From positions 40,306 to 104,305 of the IMG/VR virus record IMGVR_UViG_3300028610_002211: a stretch of DNA of 64,000 nt, one strand, 5' to 3'. The notes under the pieces were generated by a model that saw nothing but the letters and a program-made list of their open reading frames with translations, was not told the origin of the DNA and did no database searches. The stretch comes from a virus. The translations under genes were made by a program, and so were the position numbers. How positions within the stretch are numbered: the first letter of the stretch is position 1; every line of letters starts with the position of its first letter. Shown here one piece after another: positions 618 to 20,434 of the stretch.

Positions 618-2473
618 ATGGACAAAACACAAAAAAGTAATCCATCAGTAACAGAGATTGTGAAAGATTGGTTGAAAGAACACGGCTTTGACGGGCTTTA
701 TAATGTTGATTCACAATGCGGTTGCGCGGTTGACGATTTTGCGCTTTGTGGTCAAATTTATTTAGACTGTCAAGCCGGTTATAAAGCTAAAATGGGTAGC
801 GATTCTGAAGACGATTATGGTATTGGTCCAGAAAAAGACCTGTGGTATTGGTCCACAAGAGCTCAAAAGGTAAAAACAAAAAAGAAATAAGGGGTTGATT
901 TATGCATTTAGAAACAAAGGAAGTGTCAGACAAAGTGATTGAGGGGTTCGAGCCGGTACCAGAGCGCCTTTCTGACGCTGCAAAACAGGTTTTGGATGGT
1001 TTCACCCGGGTAACCGCTACACGAGCAACACAAGGCGGTAGAGACCTTATAACTTGGGCCAAACACGAGCTAAAAACGAAAAAACACAAAAAGGCCAAGC
1101 GCAAGCAAAAAAAGCAATCGAAACGAAAAAACAGGTCGAAAAAATGAAAAAAATTGATCTGATAAGAGCAAAAAGGCCGATAGGATCGATAAAACAACAT
1201 GAAATGTTGGCAGGCGGTTTGCAGTCCTTGGCAGATTTGATAATAATGCTCGCCAAAGGTCAAAGAACGGTTTGGATTTTAACGATAGTTAACTTTTTGT
1301 TGTTTATTTTACATTTTTACCACTTTCACTAAACGTTTTGAACAAAAAGAGCTCAAAAATGACAAAAGAACCGAAAAAAGACCAATTTGAAGAAACGTTG
1401 TGTAAGGAGATAGTGAAAAAATTCGGTGAAGACTGGGCGGCAATAGAAGATCGATATTATGAACGGTTGCAAAGACAATTAATAGCATACGAAGATGAAA
1501 AAAAAGACAAATTGAAGATCGCGAGCCTTGAAAAGCGCGTTTTAGAGCTCGAATTAGCAATTGATCGACTTGCTAGAGCGACCGATGGAAATAATTGGGC
1601 GGGGGTGCCTCGCTATCGGGACCAAAAACACGAAAATGAAAAAAAAGACAAAAAACAAGAAAATAAAAGTTAAAAAAAGCTTGGTTATCAAGTTTGAAGT
1701 GTCAGAAACAGAAGACGGCGGTGTAAATGGAACTATCAAGCTAGTTTATATTGATTACGACACTCAAAAGGATGAAAAACAATGCCTTCTTTCAAAATAA
1801 CTCAAAAAACTGATAACGAATGGAACCTTCACGTAACGTTTATTATCGGTACCACGCAAATTTATGCGAGATATGTTGATAAAACTAAAACAGAAGTTGT
1901 TGCCAAAGCGCTAAATGGACTTAGGAACATGTGTGATAAAATAAGCGAGGTCCGAAGCCAGTTGTTATCAGAATATGACAAAGAATGACCAAAAACCCCT
2001 AGAAAGGAAAAAACAAAATGAAGGACTTGAGCGAAACAGATTTGAAAGAAAAACTGTTGGTTGGAACAAAGGCATATGTGTTGATAGAAAGTATAGACCC
2101 GTACGACATAGAAGCGGGCAAACTTGTCCAGTTGGACAAACTGACGGTTATGGGAGTGATTGTTTGCGACCGTTTAGAAGAGGAAACAAGGAGTCTTGTG
2201 ACGGATCGGGTGTTTACCACTTACAAAATAGCTCCAACTAGCTTAGAAGAAGCAAACAAACTTCCCAAACCAAACCCAAACGAAAAGGATTGGGACAAGC
2301 CGCTTGAATATGACGGTCCGATCGCTTGCACCGAACGGCAACTGTTAGAGATAATCGAAGATGAGTTTGTTGCGTTTGAAGCGTTTTATGCCGGTCTGGT
2401 TAACATGACCAGGGCTTATATAGCGCACAAAAAACACGCTTTAACTGAACAAGAGCTTTTTAACACTCTTTAA
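618..2473 (+). CDS. Run of small hypothetical genes (618-890, 902-1147, 1144-1332 with a C-terminal hydrophobic helix, 1359-1673, 1636-1800, 1782-1988, 2018-2473)
   Basis: Abutting or overlapping + strand ORFs, several with SD-like sequences; no recognisable family. Confidence 0.6.
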
Positions 2474-3798: not shown

Positions 3799-4709
3799 CA
3801 CGCGGTCGGTTATTCGAACACACACGAACACGCAGCAAAACACCCCCAGAACACCAACACATCCCCTAAAACGCTCGATTACACGCTAAGGTATACCCTA
3901 GCCTACCTAACGCTCCAACACGCTTACAGACACTTACAGACATGTTTAACGATATAACGACTTGTCTTTAATTTATGAGGGTGATTATTCTAGTCTTTTG
4001 AGTACAGGCATGTTGAAATTCCCCCTATATAGACAGCGCCTTAAAGGAATACTTTAACACGCTAATTCATATATCAGAAAATCTTTAAAACACTCAAAAA
4101 ACCCAAAAACCTCCAAATAGACTGAAAAAAAGGATCTGTTTCTCGTTCGAGTACTTAATTCAGATGTCGCCACAATCCCCCAAAAATCCCCCAAACAAAA
4201 AACCACACCAAGAGCACCATAGGGGTCACAAGAGCCATAACGATAACAACAGAGATAGTAACAGCCACATATACCTCTAATCGTCCCCAGAACACCCCTA
4301 GAATTCGGTATATGCCGATATACACGCATACACGTAGGCACGTGTAGAAGCGTAACAGAAAGCAGATGAGAGGACATACACGTGATATAGCGTTTAACGT
4401 AATTTAGATGTTTAAGAGGGAATGAGTTAGAGCGTGTTAGAGGGGATTAGTTAAACGGATTAAGGGAGTTAGAGTTGAAGAATAGATATAGCGACCGATA
4501 TAACGACCGATATAACGACCCGTGATAGTTTCGAAAGGCGGCGCGCTCCCGACCTGGGAAAACTCAAAATCAGCAGCACACCTAAACAAGAAACGTACCA
4601 ATCCGAGGGGAGTTAAAGCCACGACCCCAGAAACCTTTAAACGGTTTAAACGCGTTTGTCCTCATACGCACATACACACATATAATACAAATCATTTGTC
4701 GCTTTTATC

Positions 4710-4744
4710 TTGACATATGAGTTAGAGGTGGTTATATTAGTAGT
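4710..4744 (+). promoter_or_regulatory. sigma70-type promoter, predicted +1 on the ATG at 4745
   Basis: TTGACA-17 nt-TATATT, then 6 nt, then ATG. Confidence 0.7.
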
Positions 4745-4987
4745 ATGGCAAGAACAACAGCAATCGAATCGAAAGGAGTAACGGGAATGAAAAGGGCCGT
4801 CTGCTGTAAGTGTCGGGTCATGCGCAACACTGACGAGATGGATCGGACTGTGGGGTGTTTGGGTCAAATCGTTTGGTTGTGTCAACGGTGCAGCAATGCA
4901 CAGCACAAAGAGCAAATTCGCGAAATCTTAATTGATGCTGAATCACAAGGTGTCGATATAGATAAGTGGAGACACCTGCTCGACTAA
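4745..4987 (+). CDS. Small Zn-finger-like protein (second, SD-led start at 4787)
   Basis: CCKC...CQRC; AAGGAG upstream of the in-frame ATG at 4787; GC-rich hairpin follows at about 4995-5026. Confidence 0.65.
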   Translation: MARTTAIESKGVTGMKRAVCCKCRVMRNTDEMDRTVGCLGQIVWLCQRCSNAQHKEQIREILIDAESQGVDIDKWRHLLD

Positions 4988-5614
4988 TCCCCAACGGGGC
5001 GCGGGTTAAACCGCGCCCTACTTCTTTAGTTCGAGTTAAAGCCGTCTTAAACCCGTTCTAACGCTCTAACTCTTTAACTCAACCCGTGGGTATTAACTAG
5101 GGTTAGAAAGGAGCACAGAAGGGCGTATAACGGCATCACAATCGATCCTACCCCCACTGGCAATCCGATGTGGGCCGGGGGGCGGTCTGGACCCATGTCT
5201 TACTGCCGCGCCCAACGCTCAACTTTTTCACCAAAAGCCGTTTTTAACCCATATAATCGAGTTAGAGACCTAACTATTTCACAAAAAATTTTTAACTCGC
5301 AAAGCCAAACTTTCCCAACATCTGAGTTAGACACTACCTAACGACTTAACGACTTAACGACCTAGCGACCCAACCGCCACCCCCCTTTTAACCAATGCCC
5401 ACCTACAAAACCACAGAATAACCCACAAGCCGCTTTAACACCCTAAGACAACCAACCCTATACCCAGATGTTAGAAAGGCACACACAAAGCCCTAATGCG
5501 ACTCCAGGCCTTCGGCCTACCTACGCGCTCGGGCGCGCGCGTGGGAAACGAAGAAAGGGAAACAAAAAAGCTTCCGGAGGTGCCGGGAGGGGGCGAAGAA
5601 AAGTGAGAAAAATG

Positions 5615-6684: not shown

Positions 6685-8964
6685 GCAATGTGAAGAATTC
6701 AGAAGGTTAGCAGAAGAAAGCTCGATGTCAATTGGTGGAATGGATGGTGTGAATGACTGCGAAAATATGCTTTTAAAGTTCATGACTCCGGAGTTTATTA
6801 TTGGATACTCGAAGTGGAAAGAAAAGCGTGATAGGTTGGTGAAAGTCGCAAGAGAAAAGCTGTTGACAGAAGGGAAAGAACGAAGGCAAACGCGCGATCC
6901 ACCAAAATTTAATCGTCCGAAGATAAGACCACAAAAAGAAGGAAGGAAAGAGTGACTGATGGTTGAATATAAAAAGGTAGAGTGTTTATGTGGGGAAATG
7001 ATACACACTAGCGTTTGGGGGACGTGGGTTGATGACCAGTGGTTTTGTGGAGAATGTCTAGTTAAAGCAGTTAGTAAAAACAAAAAAACAATCACCAAAA
7101 TCGAAGAAGAGATAATTGGTATTGAGGAAAGTTTGTTAATCACTCAAAACAACGGAACAAGAAACTTAAGAGAACACGAAAACAAAATCAAGTTGGTTGG
7201 GTTTGGGAAAGGTGAATTAAGAGGGTTGCGTTTTGCTTTAGGGTTGTTGAAAAGTGAAAAATAGTTGACCTGAAAACGAAAGGTGGAAGGGATGAACATT
7301 GAACAAGGACTTCAACGTTTAAAAGAATTGTACGGGAATCCGGGAACTTTGTTCTTGGGTGATGCTACAGGTTCACGAGCTCGACTCACTCCGGGTCAAC
7401 AAGTGGCAATCCTCATTGATGGTCCTTACCTAATAGGTACGGTTCAACGTCATCGTACACAGCGCGGGAAAATGATGATTAAGTACCACGATGGACGAAG
7501 AAATTGGATAATCTCACCTGACAAAAACCAGGTGTTGATCGAATGGTATGATCAAATGGTAAAAAGAAAGGTGTAAAAACTAATTGACCCGAAAACGAAA
7601 AAAGGGTTGTAAGCACGATCACAGCGTTAAGGTGAACGGCGTTTGCTGGGCGTGCTTAAAAAAGGGGTTAATGGTTTGCTTGTGTTTGGGGTGTGGGCAC
7701 AAGTGGAAAGAAAAACCAGGCCCAACCGAGTGCCCAGAATGCGCCGGATTCTATGTCAAAAAGGGGTGGTAAGAATGAGATGGGAAAATATATCTTTGTT
7801 GGATGAACCAATTGAATCTAAATTAGTTTTGTCTAAAGCCGAAACAAAAGTTTTGAAAAGAGCATATGATCTTTTAAGTAAAATTAAAAACAAATTAGAA
7901 GAAACTTACGGTGAAGATAAGGCCGAAAAAATACCATCTTGCGAACCTTGGATTTATGCAGAATCTTGGTTTAGATGTGCAATTGACGATTTGAGAGTTG
8001 ATGGAATTAAATTTCCGTTAAAGGATAATAAAAACCTCGTTTTCATTCCAAAACGAGTGAGACTTGGGTTTGAAATGAGAGAATTACCATTTAACCAAAA
8101 GCAGTTTATTGAAGTGACCGGATACATTGAAGGTGGTGACACATTAGACGCTTGCGTGTTTTGCGATTATTCGCGTGATAAGGAGTTTATCGAAAAAGGT
8201 TGCTCAATTGTCAAACTCGTTTGCGCGTTTTATCATCATCAGAGTTTTGAGGTTTCGTCAATCGGTTGTTGTCGAAAGTTCAGAGGATAAAAATGAGCAA
8301 GTATTACGTTTATTTGATAGCAAAAAAGCCGGGTTTTTTTCGTCGTTTGTTCAAGTTGCGCGGTAAAACATCAACCGTAATGAGTGACAATCCGGTTAAA
8401 CCAAAATTACCGAAAGGATATATCTTCTTTTCACTTATCGGTGAAGTGAGGGATAATGAGTAAAATTGACGAAAGCGTAAAAGACTCTACGTCAAAAAAG
8501 GATGGTAAGAAATGACACGTTTAGTGGAAACGTTGCTCGATATGTTAAGAACTGTCGAAAGAGTTTGGCCCGAGCTTGGCAAAACGGCCGAATGGTTTCA
8601 AGGGTATAAAGACGGGATCGAAGTGTCGATCCAAACGATCAAAACTAAATATAGAGAACGGGCGATGAGTCTGCAAAACGCCACTGATTTGCAGCGCGAA
8701 CAGTTAGTTGCAGCTCCACAAAAATACGATGTACTAGGCAACCTCAAAGACAAAGAGAAGCGGATAGCACGCGGGTTTGTTGATATTGGCGATTTGAGAA
8801 TCGGCGACGTTGTCCAGTTTTATCAATACGGATCGCTATTTGTTGACGAAATCGGTTGTTTTACCTGGTTGGTTATTCACTTGCCGGTTAGGGGAGCTGT
8901 TCAACTATCCCGATTGCACTTTGACGCTTTAAAGAACCGCACTACAGACGAAAGACGGGGATAA
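6674..8964 (+). CDS. Hypothetical genes 6674-6955, 6959-7264 (Zn finger plus GELRGLRFAL module), 7283-7576, 7584-7772 (Zn ribbon), 7775-8290, 8293-8463, 8512-8964
   Basis: Tightly packed + strand ORFs with overlapping stop/start codons. Confidence 0.6.
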
Positions 8965-15188: not shown

Positions 15189-15431
15189 ATGAAAGAGGCA
15201 AGCAAAATGAAAATCCAAATCGCTAGTTTATACGCAAACGAGAAAAACAAAAAAAAGGCCGATCGGATCAAAAAGGCACTACAAGGAAAAACGTCTTTTA
15301 ATTTGCAAGTGTCGGCGGTCAACAAGGGTGGAAACCTCATTATCACAGTTTCGAGTAGCTTTGCCGAAAACATGGTTGAATTGGCTGAGATGGTTATGAC
15401 TCTTCTTGTTGACTTGATCGACGGTGAATAA
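15189..15431 (+). CDS. Hypothetical protein
   Basis: ORF with a likely start at MKIQ after GAGG. Confidence 0.55.
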   Translation: MKEASKMKIQIASLYANEKNKKKADRIKKALQGKTSFNLQVSAVNKGGNLIITVSSSFAENMVELAEMVMTLLVDLIDGE

Positions 15432-16710
15432 AATGAAAAACGTAACACAAGAAAGAAAAATTTTTTGGTACAATCGTTTCGATTTTTTGGCGGTAGCAAT
15501 TCTTTTTTGGGCCACTATCAAAAAGAGCGCTTTCAACAATGCGCGCTTGGTTTTCAACGGCGAAACCCGCGTTGTTAGGGGTCGGACCGAATATTCACCC
15601 AACATCACAGAATACGGTTTTGAAGTTGTTTGCGACATCAACGATCATATCGAAATCCCTGGACACCGCTTTGTTGGAATCGCCGTAAACAAAGGACCGG
15701 GTTGGATCGTTACCAACTTCACTGACGATTTCAAATTCACCAAAGAGGTTGTTGACTCTTTGGATCCACAACGTTGTGATATGTGCGGACACAAAAGAGA
15801 CCGGGTTCGTTTGATGATTCTCGAAAACACCGATACCAAAGAGCTTGTGATCGTGGGTGGCAGCTGCGCAAAGAATTTTCGCAACGTCAATCTTGAAGAC
15901 TTGGTCCGCAAAATGACAATTTTCTCAAGCAACTTTGGCTGTATGGACCCTGATGAATTGGGCGGTTTTGGCGGCGGCGGTCGTAGAATTTTGGATTTGG
16001 TTGAGTCGATCGCGGTTGGCGAATTGTTGATCTCTCGACTCGGGTACACCTCAAGAAAAAAAGCAGATATAGGAATGACTTATGCTACTTCAGATTTGAT
16101 CGCCGATTATTTCGCGAGCAAGGGTAAGTCTTACAAATCCATCAAAGCCGTTATGGACCGCTCAAGGTTAGACCTTGCTCAGCGCATTAAAGAGCTTACA
16201 AACGGCGGTCTGAAGGCGCTTAGGGCTCATTTCGAGCGCGCTAACGAGCGCCGTTGGTCTGAATTCAACAGCAACATGGTTGTTTGGTTGTCTTGTAAAG
16301 AAGACGTTCCGCTTGGTGTCGCTGCTTACCTCGCTTTTGTCAACCTCGAAGGCGCCAAAGAATCGGACCGGACCGATCAGAAAGTTGCCGGCTTCGACGG
16401 TGCACCGATCAAAAAAATGTCAGATTTCGGTTGGTTCAAAGTGGTAAACGTTAGAGCAAAGGAGAATGATTACACTGGTAACACTGATTTTTGTTTCACT
16501 TGTTTGAACGCCGATTCACAAAAACTTTGGTTCAAGGTTGGCGAGAATAGCGTTGCAAATAAAGCTTATGATCAAGTTGTCTCGGGTGATGGGGTTAACC
16601 AAGATCAAGAGATCTGGATCGATGTTCGTGGCAAATTGACCCGAAGCAAAAGTGAAATTGCTTTTGCTTCGCACATCAAATTCAAAAAAGTTGAAATCCG
16701 CACAATCTAA
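15424..16710 (+). CDS. Conserved phage protein with a Zn-binding motif and possibly a C-terminal OB-like fold
   Basis: CDMCGHKRDR...VGGSC motif; 428-aa ORF; beta-rich C-terminus. Confidence 0.6.
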   Translation: MNKMKNVTQERKIFWYNRFDFLAVAILFWATIKKSAFNNARLVFNGETRVVRGRTEYSPNITEYGFEVVCDINDHIEIPGHRFVGIAVNKGPGWIVTNFTDDFKFTKEVVDSLDPQRCDMCGHKRDRVRLMILENTDTKELVIVGGSCAKNFRNVNLEDLVRKMTIFSSNFGCMDPDELGGFGGGGRRILDLVESIAVGELLISRLGYTSRKKADIGMTYATSDLIADYFASKGKSYKSIKAVMDRSRLDLAQRIKELTNGGLKALRAHFERANERRWSEFNSNMVVWLSCKEDVPLGVAAYLAFVNLEGAKESDRTDQKVAGFDGAPIKKMSDFGWFKVVNVRAKENDYTGNTDFCFTCLNADSQKLWFKVGENSVANKAYDQVVSGDGVNQDQEIWIDVRGKLTRSKSEIAFASHIKFKKVEIRTI

Positions 16711-16721
16711 ACAATTTCGAA

Positions 16722-16761
16722 AAGCAAACAAAGGGTGCGGGAAACCGCGCTCTTTGTCTTT
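16722..16761. terminator. Bidirectional intrinsic terminator
   Basis: aaagggtgcgg-gaaa-ccgcgctcttt, A-rich on the left and T-rich on the right. Confidence 0.7.
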
Positions 16762-16897
16762 GCAGAATGTCCAGGGCGCCCTTGTGCGCGCGCCCGCGCG
16801 CGGGCGCATACTCGGGCAAGGGTTAAACACAACGGCCGTTAGAACGGCGCACAAAGGTTCTGAGAAGGAAGTGAGATAAACAGATCCTAAAGGATAA
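16722..16897 (-). ncRNA. Candidate sigma54-driven structured small RNA 1
   Basis: Non-coding; bounded by a sigma54 site and a terminator; arms ccttgtgcgc (16780) / gcgcacaaagg (16847). Confidence 0.4.
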
Positions 16898-16905
16898 TAT
16901 CTAAA

Positions 16906-16923
16906 TTGCAATCTGCGTGCCAA
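16906..16923 (-). promoter_or_regulatory. sigma54 (RpoN) -24/-12 site
   Basis: Minus strand reads TTGGCACGCAGATTGCAA = TGGCACG-N4-TTGCA consensus. Confidence 0.75.
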
Positions 16924-16942
16924 AGGAAAAATAATTTTTTTT

Positions 16943-17027
16943 AAAATAAAAGTGAGAATTTTCTTGACATCTGAATTAGCTGTGTTAAGTTTATAATATG
17001 AGCGCAACAATAAGGAGCAAGACAATG
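16943..17027 (+). promoter_or_regulatory. Promoter/leader cassette, copy 5
   Basis: TTGACA(16964)-16 nt-TAAGTT, TATAAT, ATG(16998), AGCGCAACA, AAGGAG, ATG(17025). Confidence 0.85.
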
Positions 17028-17512
17028 AACGTTAAAATGAAAAAAGGAGAAACAGGTTATTTCAAGGGTGACAAAATACAATTCACCGGAAAAGAAGAAG
17101 TTCTTTACGGTGGGCTTTTCGATGAGTTTGTTTATCTCGAAGGTTATAAAAAAGCAGCTAAAAAAGCATAATGCACAAAGGAGCAAGTAAAATGAACACC
17201 ACTAACAATAATAAAAATACTGTCGAAGAAAAAAGAACAACAATCGAGGTTTTCGACCCTAAAAAATTCGATCACAACCAAAGGTGGTTTCAACCGATCA
17301 ACAATTTTGCTTTTCTTGGACAAGCTTCCGGTATGGCGCTCGCTCACGATCCGATTTATAGGGATAGTCTATGGGCCGAAACAGTACCGCACCCTAATTT
17401 TTTGCGCGATGTCGAGAGAAAATTTCCCGGTCATGTGTTGGTTTATGATGATATGGGTCATGGACGCGATTGGATTCTCTCGATCAAAGGTTCTATTCCT
17501 TCGAACGAATAG
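16998..17512 (+). CDS. Small genes 16998/17025-17171 (absent from the ORF track) and 17171/17192-17512
   Basis: SD-led ORFs; the second reuses the leader fragment cacaaaggagcaag. Confidence 0.65.
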
Positions 17513-17671
17513 CGTTCAACGCCCTTGTGCGCGCCCCTGTGGTAACTTTTGTTTGTCTCCTGTGTTGCGCTAACCATGGGGATTTGAGTCGAACAGGAGC
17601 GCGCACAAGGGTGTTGAACCCGTTCAACAGCTTCAATGAACCTGCCAAAATAAACAGATCCTAAAGGATAA
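17510..17671 (-). ncRNA. Candidate sigma54-driven structured small RNA 2, carrying a copy of the cassette leader in its loop
   Basis: 27-bp near-perfect inverted repeat (17514-17540 / 17593-17619); the loop reads AGCGCAACACAGGAGACAAACAAAA on the minus strand. Confidence 0.45.
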
Positions 17672-17679
17672 TATCTAAA

Positions 17680-17697
17680 TTGCAATTCACGTGCCAA
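17680..17697 (-). promoter_or_regulatory. sigma54 -24/-12 site
   Basis: Minus strand reads TTGGCACGTGAATTGCAA. Confidence 0.75.
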
Positions 17698-17716
17698 GAA
17701 AAAAACCACTTCTGTT

Positions 17717-17809
17717 TAATTTAAATGTCGTTTTTCGGTTGACATCTAAATTAGAATGATTAAGCTTTATAGTATGAGCGCAACACAAAACACGGGAGAA
17801 AACAAAATG
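17717..17809 (+). promoter_or_regulatory. Promoter/leader cassette, copy 6
   Basis: TTGACA(17739)-16 nt-TAAGCT, ATG(17774), AGCGCAACAC, GGAG, ATG(17807). Confidence 0.8.
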
Positions 17810-18393
17810 ACAAAAATCGAAATGGCTCAGTATATTGTTGAGGTCTTGTATCAGTTGGACCACGTACCTGCCCGAGATCACATCCATGTCCAGCGAATAG
17901 CTCGCAGGCCGAAGGTTGCCTTGGAGAATTTGTACGAAAGAGCTTTCGTGGTCGAAGAAGAGCTGAAGGCGAAAAAAACCATAGCTAGCCTGTAAACCAA
18001 AACTGCAAACGGGGGGGGTAACACTCCCCGAAAGGGTGTCCGATGAACGACAAAATAAAAAAAATACTGTTCGAATTGTCGGCCGATTTCACTTTGGCTG
18101 GTATCCAACAAGGGCGCAAATCGTTACACGAGGATAAAGCGCTTTGCCTCAAGGTTTCGAAATTACGAAACGCGATCGATCTTTTGTCACTCCAAAGAGC
18201 GCAACTTGCGCGTTGTTGGGAAGGTGTTTCGATTACTTCTATCGTTGAAACGGTCAAAGAATGTTTGGGCGCAGCGCTTGAATTGGGATCTTTTTTGGGT
18301 AATAACTACCCCGCCGAGTATATCGAAATCGAGTTGCATGGTACAAAATACGTCGAAAAATGTTGGGCCTTGATTGGCGTTTTGTCCGTTTAA
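17774..18393 (+). CDS. Small genes 17774/17807-17995 and 18043-18393
   Basis: ORFs follow cassette 6. Confidence 0.6.
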
Positions 18394-18415
18394 AATCGTA
18401 TTTCATCCCGGTTTA

Positions 18416-18445
18416 AAGGTGTTTCGAAAGGGGCGCCTTTTTTTA
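18416..18445 (+). terminator. Intrinsic terminator
   Basis: aaaggtgtttc-gaaa-ggggcgcc followed by a T run. Confidence 0.65.
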
Positions 18446-18476
18446 TTTCTGTGTAATTCACAAGTCAGGATAATCT

Positions 18477-18494
18477 TTGGCACGTAAATTGCTA
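18477..18494 (+). promoter_or_regulatory. sigma54 -24/-12 site
   Basis: TTGGCACGTAAATTGCTA. Confidence 0.75.
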
Positions 18495-18502
18495 CGCGTG
18501 TT

Positions 18503-18700
18503 GTAAATATTATCCTTTAGAATCTGTCCATCCGTTTCGGCGTCCGAATTAACCGCTTATTTTTGTTGGCGTTAGGCTTTGTGTTTGAAAACGAGTTCAA
18601 GGGCCTTGTGCGCCTTCTCAAGGCGTTTTAACGGGTCAACCTATACCAGGGGTTGAGTTAAAAAAACGGTCGTTAAAACGCCTTGTGGATATCTTGTGTT
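18503..18700 (+). ncRNA. Candidate sigma54-driven structured small RNA 3
   Basis: Shares TATTATCCTTTAG(G/A)ATCTGT and ccttgtgcgc with RNAs 1 and 2; perfect 15-bp inverted repeat at 18619-18633 / 18671-18685. Confidence 0.4.
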
Positions 18701-18723
18701 TAATTCACATGTTGATAAATAGT

Positions 18724-18741
18724 TTGGAATGAATATTGCAA
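18724..18741 (+). promoter_or_regulatory. Variant sigma54 site
   Basis: TTGGAATGAATATTGCAA with correct GG/GC spacing; same upstream box and downstream TTTAGAATCTGT as the 18477 copy. Confidence 0.55.
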
Positions 18742-18837
18742 CGCGCGCTTGTTTACATTTAGAATCTGTACATCCGCTTCAACCTTCGATATAAATTGCG
18801 TTTTGACTTTTTAGTTAAAGAGTGTTAAAACCTGTTC

Positions 18838-19338
18838 ATGAAAATTCTAAGACGAAAAAACATAAAAAGCTTTCCGGGTTATCAAATTTCAAACTTTGGA
18901 ACAGTTAGGAGAGAAGTTTATAAATTGTACGGGATTAAGGAAACGAGGATATTTCCTCATATCAATAATGGTTATCAAATTGCCAATTTAAAAAGCGAAT
19001 CTGGGGAGCAAAAGAAAGTGCCTATTCACAAACTTGTTGCAAAAGCTTTCGTTTCCGGCTGGTTTGAGGGCGCAATTGTTGATCATATCGACGAGAATAA
19101 GCAGAATAATTTTTTCAAAAATCTTCGCTGGGTAACTCATCGCTTTAATTCCTCTCGACGTAAGCGCGATCTGCCTTTGAATGTTTCAAAATTTCGAAAT
19201 CGAAATAGTTATATTGTTCGAGTTTATTTCGGTGGTGAAATCGTTTATTTGGGCTCATATAAGACGGTTGAAGAAGCTTCGAGGGTTGCTGAAAGGGCGC
19301 GCAAGCAAGCGGAAAAAGGGGAAAAACCAACTCGTTAA
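18838..19338 (+). CDS. NUMOD4/HNH homing endonuclease with an AP2-like C-terminus
   Basis: YQISNFGTVR; IHKLVAKAF..VDHIDENKQNN..NLRWVT; YLGSYKTVEEA. Confidence 0.9.
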   Translation: MKILRRKNIKSFPGYQISNFGTVRREVYKLYGIKETRIFPHINNGYQIANLKSESGEQKKVPIHKLVAKAFVSGWFEGAIVDHIDENKQNNFFKNLRWVTHRFNSSRRKRDLPLNVSKFRNRNSYIVRVYFGGEIVYLGSYKTVEEASRVAERARKQAEKGEKPTR

Positions 19339-19470
19339 TTTTTTTAGTTTCGGCGAAGCTAAATCAGAGGGTTAAAATTCTTCTAATTTAAATGTCGTTT
19401 TTCGGTTGACTTCTGAATTAAACAGGTATACAATCAAACAAGAGGTGTTCGACTAAATGGAGGTGTTTAA

Positions 19471-20434
19471 ATGGCAAGGGTTAAAATAATCGACTTTGAC
19501 GCGTTGCGCAGCGCGATCGAAGATTTCAAAGCGGGGTTGCTCGAATTTGCCGAAAATGGGGGTGATTTAAACAAGCTTGTTAAAAATTCAGAAATGGTAT
19601 TGAACCGTTTGACCGGCGAAGAAATGGAAATCTGTATTGTTGTCCAGCACGAAAAAACCCCACAACCAGAATTTGCGATTGTGAAAGGCGCTGTTTATCG
19701 TCAATCAAAGCGGGGCAAAACACACCTATTTCTTTTGACTGGGCACCGTGGCAAGGCGTTTTGTGGAGTCTCGATTGTTGATACAAGCCTTGTTTTATCT
19801 CCAAACGTAGCGGATATTTGCTCCGATTGTGCTTTAGCTGTTAACGATTTAGATGATATTTAACAGTTTTTATTTTCATATATCTGTATTTTCTTAACAT
19901 ATGTTTCACATTTCACGTGAAACATTTCTTGATTTATAAATTGGATTGTGTAAAGCTCACAAAATGGAGGTATCAATGAACGAAAACAGAAAAACAAAAG
20001 AAAAGTCAGAAGATAGCGGGGCGCCCGAACAGGTCGAAAATGAGCTCAAAAAAGAAGAACCATCGTTTACACCAAACGAAATTTTGGAACCGCTTGGGTT
20101 TGTTGAACAACAATTGACCGATGATCAGAGTAATTTGCTCGCTTTTTTTCAATTAACACTGTACGAAAAACCGCGAAAAATCGATCTTGACGCGTCTGTA
20201 ACAGCTGGATTTGACGAAAATGGGACTTATCTTTTAGTTTTTGATTTTGAGATTACGGTATTTATTGACGTTTGTGATGTTCATATCGGGTCTTATGACA
20301 TTATTTTAGACTACGAAAACAGAAATAAGTTTGCCATAATCTTTAAAGCCATTGTAACCTTTTTGTCACAATCGGCAAAACTCTATGTTGCAACACAGGC
20401 TTTACTTGACGAGAAAAAAGAAAAACCAAACTAA
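19471..20434 (+). CDS. Hypothetical genes 19471-19863 and ~19976-20434
   Basis: GGAGG SD for both; promoter TTGACT-17 nt-TACAAT at about 19406. Confidence 0.65.

Follow-up and report, generated by a model that had tools for sequence, protein, structure and literature searches.

Sigma-54-like promoter motifs in a phage early region raise the question of whether they are working promoters and, if so, what they could drive, particularly where they mostly face non-coding DNA. Such a cluster lies in a 64,000-nucleotide (nt) stretch of viral DNA, referred to here as the window, which comprises bases 40306–104305 of the 104,305-bp IMG/VR virus record IMGVR_UViG_3300028610_002211 (rated 100% complete); coordinates are window positions unless marked genome. 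From sequence, we give a probability of roughly 0.5 to the reading that its four sites (A to D) are real sigma-54-class (−24/−12) promoter modules, a family of accessory cassettes in a variable early region. The chances are about even that A, B and C head predicted non-coding units of about 170–200 nt and that the degenerate D heads an HNH homing-endonuclease gene. The sites, their rarity, their pattern of conservation, their anatomy and the complementarity of two of the units to a phage leader are read directly from the DNA and are presented first.

Four sigma-54-like sites and their downstream box

An initial annotation of the window had reported TGGCACG-N4-TTGC(A/T) three times within 1.6 kb and a variant, TGGAATG-N4-TTGCA, near 18724. 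All four were located, the first three as exact matches:

16907–16922, minus strand: site A, TGGCACG-CAGA-TTGCA, exact sigma-54 −24/−12 consensus
17681–17696, minus strand: site B, TGGCACG-TGAA-TTGCA, exact consensus
18478–18493, plus strand: site C, TGGCACG-TAAA-TTGCT, exact consensus
18725–18740, plus strand: site D, TGGAATG-AATA-TTGCA, GG and GC kept, two mismatches in the −24 element

Sites A, B and C match all 12 specified positions of a published sigma-54 consensus, TGGCACG-N4-TTGCW (PMC6424431). They are the sole exact copies in the whole 104,305-bp genome (3 matches compared with 0.03 expected; three or more in 0/100 shuffles), and their N4 is different each time (CAGA, TGAA, TAAA and, in D, AATA), as had been noted. 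The GG and GC stand exactly 10 nt apart in the three exact copies, in D with its two mismatches and in a related contig with one. The next-best sigma-54 sites elsewhere in the genome are intragenic and sub-consensus, and intergenic regions elsewhere lack the motif. A near-consensus TGGCAGG-CGGT-TTGCA at 1208–1223 (plus strand) has no box following it and falls in the apparent C-terminal part of a plus-strand membrane-protein-like frame; it is probably due to chance.

The sequence TTTAGRATCTGT trails all four sites. The module generally takes the form of an early-promoter box (full or remnant), then TTGG(C/A)A(C/T)G-N4-TTGC(A/T), then TTTAGRATCTGT 16–23 nt past TTGC. The annotation had described a longer box, TATTATCCTTTAG(G/A)ATCTGT, after three sites and a shorter one after the fourth; the full form indeed follows A, B and C, and D has TTTAGAATCTGT only. 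The elements around the sites are as follows:

16880–16899, minus strand: promoter-proximal box A, TATTATCCTTTAGGATCTGT, with core TTTAGGATCTGT at about +6 if the start is 12 nt past the −12 GC
17654–17673, minus strand: promoter-proximal box B, TATTATCCTTTAGGATCTGT
18508–18527, plus strand: promoter-proximal box C, TATTATCCTTTAGAATCTGT, 7 nt farther from the −12 element than in A and B
18758–18769, plus strand: box D, TTTAGAATCTGT alone
18454–18468, minus strand: degenerate cassette box upstream of C, CTGACTTGTGAATTA, with no matching −10
18701–18715, minus strand: degenerate cassette box upstream of D, TCAACATGTGAATTA, at a spacing equal to that of C
16964–16997, plus strand: early cassette divergent from site A, TTGACATCTGAATTA ... 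TATAAT, then the ATGAGCGCAACA leader
17739–17772, plus strand: early cassette divergent from site B, of the same type

Assuming that transcription begins about 12 nt past the −12 GC, TTTAGRATCTGT would start at about +6 in A, B and the related contig, at +8 in D and at +13 in C. This loose spacing suggests a promoter-proximal element or an element at the 5′ end of an RNA. The sequence ATCCTTTAGGAT forms a palindrome in A and B, not in C or D. Comparison of A and B with C reveals only two common blocks, TTTGGCACG-N4-TTGC and ATATTATCCTTTAGRATCTGT; the N4 varies, the blocks are offset by a 7-nt indel and the surroundings are unrelated.

Relatives provide a second view of the same bases. A single metagenome scan found one close relative, a 2,012-bp contig (L033) with a homologue of the 428-amino-acid protein encoded next to site A (71% identical). 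Its layout is that of the window: gene end, terminator hairpin, A-like GC-rich stretch, minus-strand TTGGCACATGAATTGCAATTTATACTATATCATTTAGGATCTGT and a divergent early cassette. Its site is:

L033, minus strand: TGGCACA-TGAA-TTGCA, one mismatch to the consensus

Between A and L033, TTGGCAC and TTGCAA are unchanged (13/13), as is TTTAGGATCTGT (12/12), and all four changes in the site fall within the G and N4. Identity is 60% in the non-coding body, 67% from the box to the −12 element and 69% in the spacer to the early promoter, with a background of about 60–72% around the L033 site; this test of selective conservation comprises only two independent comparisons. The expectation that GG and GC would be preferentially conserved in relatives is thus borne out in L033, and the proposal that conservation is focused on the −24/−12 bases also agrees with A and B compared with C and D. 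L033 is a mosaic in which a B-like promoter is joined to an A-like body, with different flanking genes. In a distant homologue of the 428-amino-acid gene, the upstream region (L034:1–130) carries four to five iteron-like repeats of GGAGGGGAAGTTTTCTTCC(A/C).

The sites lie among small early genes, each behind a repeated promoter cassette that consists of an A/T-rich upstream stretch, TTGACATCTGAATTA, TATAAT and a leader, ATGAGCGCAACAC...AAGGAG. About 12 such cassettes occur from genome 31988 to 63690. Sites A and B are back-to-back with two of them, at 16964 and 17739, as the annotation had stated, and hairpins precede both of these cassettes. The annotation had also placed a 12-bp box upstream of every site. 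A box is present at each, but its nature is different: because C and D hold a degenerate reverse complement of the first 15 nt of the cassette (the TTGACATCTGAATTA box) without a usable −10, we interpret it as the −35 and spacer of the phage early promoter on the opposite strand. Its spacing is identical in the two plus-strand copies, as had been observed. The TAATTCA-ATGT box lies at −56 in A, B and L033 and at −24 in C and D, positions that are 32 bp, or about three helical turns, apart. Other early cassettes directly follow the preceding gene, and long non-coding DNA in the early region is found solely beside the sigma-54-like sites; we therefore regarded each site and the stretch behind it as a single unit.

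In the main early cassettes (16964–16997 and 17739–17772; genome 34562, 51013, 51671, 52103 and 55249), TTGACA and TATAAT are 22–23 nt apart, which exceeds the standard spacing of sigma-70 promoters. An extended −10-like TGn-TAAGYT occurs 16–17 nt past TTGACA, and the true −10 and start may lie there.

Predicted units behind the sites and the dnaB leader

The annotation had all four sites facing non-coding DNA. This holds for A, B and C but not for D, which stands ahead of the HNH open reading frame. The units and the features on which they bear are as follows:

16716–16895, minus strand: predicted non-coding unit A, about 180 nt, convergent with the 428-amino-acid gene
16828–16867, plus strand: copy of the dnaB leader within unit A, 35/40 nt (87.5%) compared with genome 8750–8789, ATG at 8792; blastn E 1.5e-5
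16731–16757, no strand assigned: terminator hairpin after the 428-amino-acid gene, into which unit A runs
17500–17669, minus strand: predicted non-coding unit B, at least 170 nt, with a 27-bp inverted repeat at 17514–17619
18505–18700, plus strand: predicted non-coding unit C, about 200 nt, with GGCCTTGTGCGCC, an 11-bp long-range stem and a weak T-rich tail
18838–19338, plus strand: HNH homing-endonuclease gene downstream of D, with NUMOD4, HNH_3 and AP2-like parts (Pfam HNH_3 4e-9, phrog_59 3.6e-25)

The most specific clue to a function is complementarity to the leader of the gene for the DnaB-like helicase. The stretch at genome 8750–8789 ends 3 nt ahead of the dnaB ATG, and its copy in unit A is antisense on the strand that site A would drive, so that RNA A would be complementary over a long stretch to the ribosome-binding region of its putative target. 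Its 29 nt around CCTTTGTGCGCC are predicted to pair with the dnaB leader at −44.6 kcal/mol (genome-wide mean −12.0, standard deviation 4.0), which makes this leader the best trans duplex site in the genome for RNA A. Unit C has an exact 11-nt seed to the same leader, CCUUGUGCGCC, carried as GGCCTTGTGCGCC; its predicted duplex (−31.9 kcal/mol) is the second best in the genome. The motifs in the proposed pairing of A and C with the leader are GGCGCACAAGG and CCUUGUGCGCC. The annotation had seen a motif shared by the non-coding units, and CCTTGTGCGC is present at a similar position in all three, with copies at 16780, 17523 and 18604 (plus strand) and 17610 (minus strand). One further copy lies outside the cluster, at genome 8778, and CCTTGTGCGC is the exact complement of GCGCACAAGG, 14–23 nt ahead of the dnaB ATG. 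For the motif of unit B, the dnaB leader was not ranked as a target, and neither RNA A nor RNA C had the early leaders as significant targets (z −0.5 and −1.6).

The dnaB leader, too, is specific to the lineage: G001, a complete relative described below, has a helicase-loader-like gene and dnaB abutting without a leader (L050). In the phage studied here, an 80-nt insert separates these two genes (genome 8709–8791, L031:8709–8791) and contains a promoter-like TTTACA-N18-TATACA; the leader is related to the early leaders (GAGCACAACGG...GGCGCACAAGGA). The leader facts would suit an antisense role of A, and perhaps of C, and would suit equally well leader fragments scattered by recombination between cassettes.

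The predicted folds of the units differ in strength. Unit B folds at −73.8 kcal/mol (z −6.9), dominated by its 27-bp inverted repeat, compared with −59.8 kcal/mol for A (z −1.8) and −57.5 kcal/mol for C (z −2.3). Across A and L033 (two sequences), five double changes fall in a weak consensus fold of −22.9 kcal/mol. No conserved open reading frame for a small protein was found on the sigma-54-driven strands; the sole ATG-led frame of unit A is not kept, its L033 counterpart stopping after 8 codons on direct reading. The hairpin after the 428-amino-acid gene is fully paired on the plus strand, with G·U wobbles, in both A and L033, and is therefore first of all a plus-strand terminator. Its minus-strand form in A contains two mismatches, with a T-rich tail behind it, and the hairpin is possibly used in both directions.

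The view that the units form a small-RNA family has arguments on both sides. In its favour, a predicted promoter and a shared terminator bound unit A, and both A and C show complementarity to the leader of a phage gene; against it, L033 has not preserved the main stem of A, and B lacks a terminator. We regard the small-RNA reading as plausible on these features.

The loop of unit B contains a copy of an early leader, sense on the minus strand and antisense on the plus strand. On the plus strand (17514–17619), this hairpin loop lies just past a 106-amino-acid gene and is complementary to seven early leaders including the Shine–Dalgarno sequence (mean duplex −36.6 kcal/mol, z −8.3). The predicted minus-strand RNA B would be fully complementary to this plus-strand anti-leader element.

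C and D align collinearly as paralogues, starting near −60 and running to GTTCA(A/T)G, in which the ATG of the HNH gene in D is AAG in C. As a comparison of 18592–18598 with 18832–18840 shows, the paralogy of unit C to the promoter and 5′ leader of D reaches as far as the HNH start codon. The arrangement reflects either insertion of the HNH gene behind an RNA unit or a duplication, with loss of the gene, that gave rise to C; a transcript of unit C may read on into D and the HNH gene. The HNH leader GTTAAAGAGTGTTAAAA (18814–18830) has an exact 17-nt complement to the plus strand at 2458–2474, at the end of the open reading frame 2018–2473 (blastn E 4e-4), and a 12-nt copy occurs at 2939–2950.

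The phage, its relatives and its host

Matches to PHROG and Pfam identify a contractile-tailed phage with tail sheath, tape measure, baseplate, portal and large terminase. Its replication genes include a DnaE-type polymerase, the DnaB-like helicase, a primase, an SbcCD-like nuclease, ThyX and thymidylate kinase, and the plus strand holds nearly all phage genes. It is an uncultured 104-kb myovirus that appears to lack the usual lysogeny functions. Cultured phages yielded no DNA-level match, and their proteins are no more than about 36% identical to those of this phage.

Its capsid protein (phrog_1623) led to four IMG/VR relatives, G001–G004, with 67–72% identity; G001 is a complete 113.8-kb genome with terminal repeats (capsid 70%). 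None of the four shares DNA with window positions 15400–19500 or has the early cassette. Because the cluster is absent from these capsid-found relatives, it is an accessory feature of the variable early region of one lineage and not part of a core programme. Scans of IMG/VR with the box, the early cassette, the combined sigma-54-plus-box pattern and two neighbouring proteins returned chance matches or nothing, and a GTDB scan with the 428-amino-acid family gave no match.

Cumulative GC skew climbs steadily throughout the cluster region, and we rejected a replication origin there. The sole lead to a host group comes from two Deltaproteobacteria metagenome-assembled genomes (L038:6701–6742 and L039:3730–3771), in which a sigma-54-type promoter, TTGGCACGGCCATTGCC, is followed 14 nt on by TTTAGGATCTGTGCA, which is the L033 box with three further matching bases. 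This promoter lies upstream of a DRTGG / HATPase / 4Fe-4S operon. It is an ordinary chromosomal sigma-54 promoter, and the match is probably due to chance, because it is one independent event compared with about 0.4 expected by our estimate. A look-up of the endolysin for a host group returned viral clusters only. Elsewhere in the window, 3799–5467 is an unusual stretch with several minus-strand open reading frames, short tandem motifs (cgacttaacgacttaacgacc) and GC-rich hairpins, as well as three degenerate early-promoter boxes on the minus strand (4077, 4170 and 4414).

Competing explanations and known systems

From this arrangement we infer sigma-54 binding, transcripts and regulation as follows. 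Sigma-54 promoters are silent until a signal-sensing ATPase acts. Host RNA polymerase bearing sigma-54 would dock on the four sites and would fire only when an enhancer-binding ATPase is active; given that the phage has none recognisable, the host would have to supply this activator, unless a phage factor that escaped recognition does so. Once fired, sites A, B and C would each give a short non-coding transcript, of about 180, at least 170 and about 200 nt, respectively, those of A and B running counter to the gene flow of all neighbours, and the degenerate copy D would yield the HNH endonuclease mRNA. RNA A would hold a 40-nt antisense copy of the dnaB leader and ribosome-binding region, and RNA C would hold the 11-nt seed for the same place. 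Because both are complementary to this leader, the most likely function that we can propose is that a host signal, acting via sigma-54, would lower translation of the replicative helicase. The complete circuit, in which a sigma-54-dependent RNA family would act in trans on the phage's own helicase leader and a host enhancer-binding protein signal would brake phage replication, is speculative and we consider it improbable.

Several results weigh against the promoter modules and their proposed RNAs. The annotation had found no enhancer-binding protein in the window, and a search with PF00158 (Sigma54_activat; E up to 1) found none there or in the whole genome; nor does the genome contain a recognisable sigma-54 or sigma-70-family gene (PF04552, PF04542 and PF08281). 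The 260 nt upstream of the sites share no inverted repeat or 10-mer except the TAATTCA-ATGT box, and a shared inverted repeat of the kind that would mark activator sites about 80–150 bp upstream is therefore lacking. In G001–G004 there is no exact sigma-54 site, and one-mismatch matches equal those of a reversed-pattern control; G001 lacks both the cluster and the dnaB leader, and the system is therefore dispensable. At the RNA level, the consensus fold of A and L033 is better on the plus strand (−36.3 compared with −22.9 kcal/mol) and the main stem that is lost in L033 is a long one. The terminator after the 428-amino-acid gene is built for the plus strand, and unit B has no clear minus-strand terminator, so that its transcript would run antisense into the 106-amino-acid gene. 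No Rfam family or tRNA reaches gathering scores, with only chance-level Rfam matches in 16600–18900. The match of A to the dnaB leader could be a plain duplication without an antisense role. Finally, A, B, D and L033 give passable readings as sigma-70-like promoters.

The lack of a recognisable activator gene and of a shared enhancer-like site upstream is also what would be expected if the sites docked sigma-54 polymerase without acting as promoters. Sigma-54 holoenzyme forms stable closed complexes without an activator, and such complexes, sitting between the end of an early operon and the next early promoter, could serve as insulators or roadblocks against read-through, or as a sponge for the host sigma-54 pool that genome replication would multiply. 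All three exact sites lie just past a plus-strand gene end or terminator and ahead of the next promoter or gene, and conservation of RNA structure is weak. Docking, however, leaves unexplained the strictly conserved TTTAGRATCTGT box downstream of every site, the 150–200 nt of extra DNA per site and the shared CCTTGTGCGC at a similar position, and four sites per genome would make a modest sponge. We consider this explanation unlikely.

A different doubt concerns the origin of the copies. The collinearity of C and D up to the HNH start codon, the mosaic nature of the region (seen in L033) and the scraps of other leaders that the units hold in either orientation would all fit leftovers of a selfish cassette, in which the HNH promoter and 5′ leader were copied by recombination between early cassettes and A, B and C have no function. 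Shuffling mediated by promoter-early stem-loop (PeSL) cassettes is documented (PMC2839356). However, the gene-less copies are perfect and the gene-bearing copy is degenerate, which makes it unlikely that A, B and C are decaying duplicates of a gene promoter; moreover, L033 keeps the consensus bases and the box while the spacer and flanks change. We give functionless leftovers a low probability.

The sites could instead be sigma-70-type or phage-factor-dependent promoters or operators, with TTGGCA or TTGCAA as −35 and TATTAT or TAGRAT as −10. Sites A and B contain TTGGCA-N18-TATTAT (10/12), TTGCAA-N18-TAGAAT overlaps D, and on direct reading of the sequence A, B and L033 accommodate TTGCAA-N16-TAGGAT; the fully conserved box includes TAGRAT, and the complete relative G001 lacks sigma-54 sites. 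Site C, however, has no sigma-70 geometry (spacers of 23–25 nt) and yet keeps the full 12-position sigma-54 consensus. The conservation of CACG and TTGC at exactly GG-N10-GC in five copies would be unexplained, the early promoters of the phage are of a different and much stronger design, and no phage sigma factor was found. This explanation, too, is doubtful.

Pseudomonas phage YuA offers a precedent for sigma-54-class promoters in a phage, the reading that we prefer. In the literature searched, phage use of sigma-54 was represented by YuA only, and a phage-encoded sigma-54-dependent small RNA was not found. YuA has a sigma-54-like promoter (Ceyssens et al. 2008, via bioRxiv 10.1101/2023.10.13.562163); it is a virulent phage with a host-type sigma-54 promoter beside sigma-70-like ones and no activator of its own reported. 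YuA has a single site that serves protein-coding genes and was supported by promoter trap and mapping of transcription start sites, whereas the window phage has a predicted four-site cassette that mostly faces non-coding DNA, with two sites against the gene flow.

The closest functional analogues include small RNAs of bacteria. GlmY, CrcZ and NrsZ are bacterial sigma-54-dependent small RNAs. Others are Qrr1–5, activated by LuxO (10.1101/2021.07.01.450815). These RNAs resemble the predicted units here in being multi-copy short RNAs behind −24/−12 promoters with a shared motif able to pair with the ribosome-binding region of a target; their activators and the upstream sites of these are defined, their structures are conserved and they end in Rho-independent terminators, whereas in the window phage no activator site was found, structure conservation is weak and the genes are phage-borne. 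Among phages, lambda OOP, P22 sar and P1/P7 c4 are antisense RNAs that block translation of phage genes, with sigma-70 promoters and acting mostly in cis or on immunity genes. Like the proposed RNA A, with its 35/40 nt of complementarity to the dnaB leader, they are short and can pair with the ribosome-binding region of an mRNA of the phage. RNA A would differ in its promoter, predicted to be of the sigma-54 type, and in its target, a replication gene about 48 kb distant that it would reach in trans.

Bonocora et al. in 2015 reportedly mapped non-productive or intragenic sigma-54 binding sites by chromatin immunoprecipitation (ChIP). Non-productive and intragenic sites mapped by ChIP in Escherichia coli and Salmonella are described in PMC3844500; they resemble those here in having consensus sites, odd geometry, in some cases an antisense orientation to genes, and no obvious enhancer. 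They are scattered and usually sub-consensus, in contrast to three perfect sites in 1.6 kb, each with a downstream box. The PeSL cassettes of T4-type phages, which are shuffled by recombination (PMC2839356), offer a further parallel: repeated early-promoter cassettes with stem-loops, a variable region of small genes and points of recombination, with L033 shuffled at these very cassettes. Here, the sigma-70-type cassettes have the PeSL combination of a repeated strong early promoter and a stem-loop terminator among small genes in a variable region, and the sigma-54 module does not. PeSLs comprise sigma-70-like promoters and terminators only, and a sigma-54 module with a box and about 150 nt of extra DNA is undescribed for them.

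A phage that placed sigma-54 promoters ahead of its own regulatory RNAs would read the physiology of its host through a host sensor, with none of its own. If the link to the helicase is true, a lytic phage would match its replication to the state of its host through a circuit that is simple and testable. If the brake reading is true, it would amount to a slow-down switch, gated by host state, in a phage that apparently lacks lysogeny functions.

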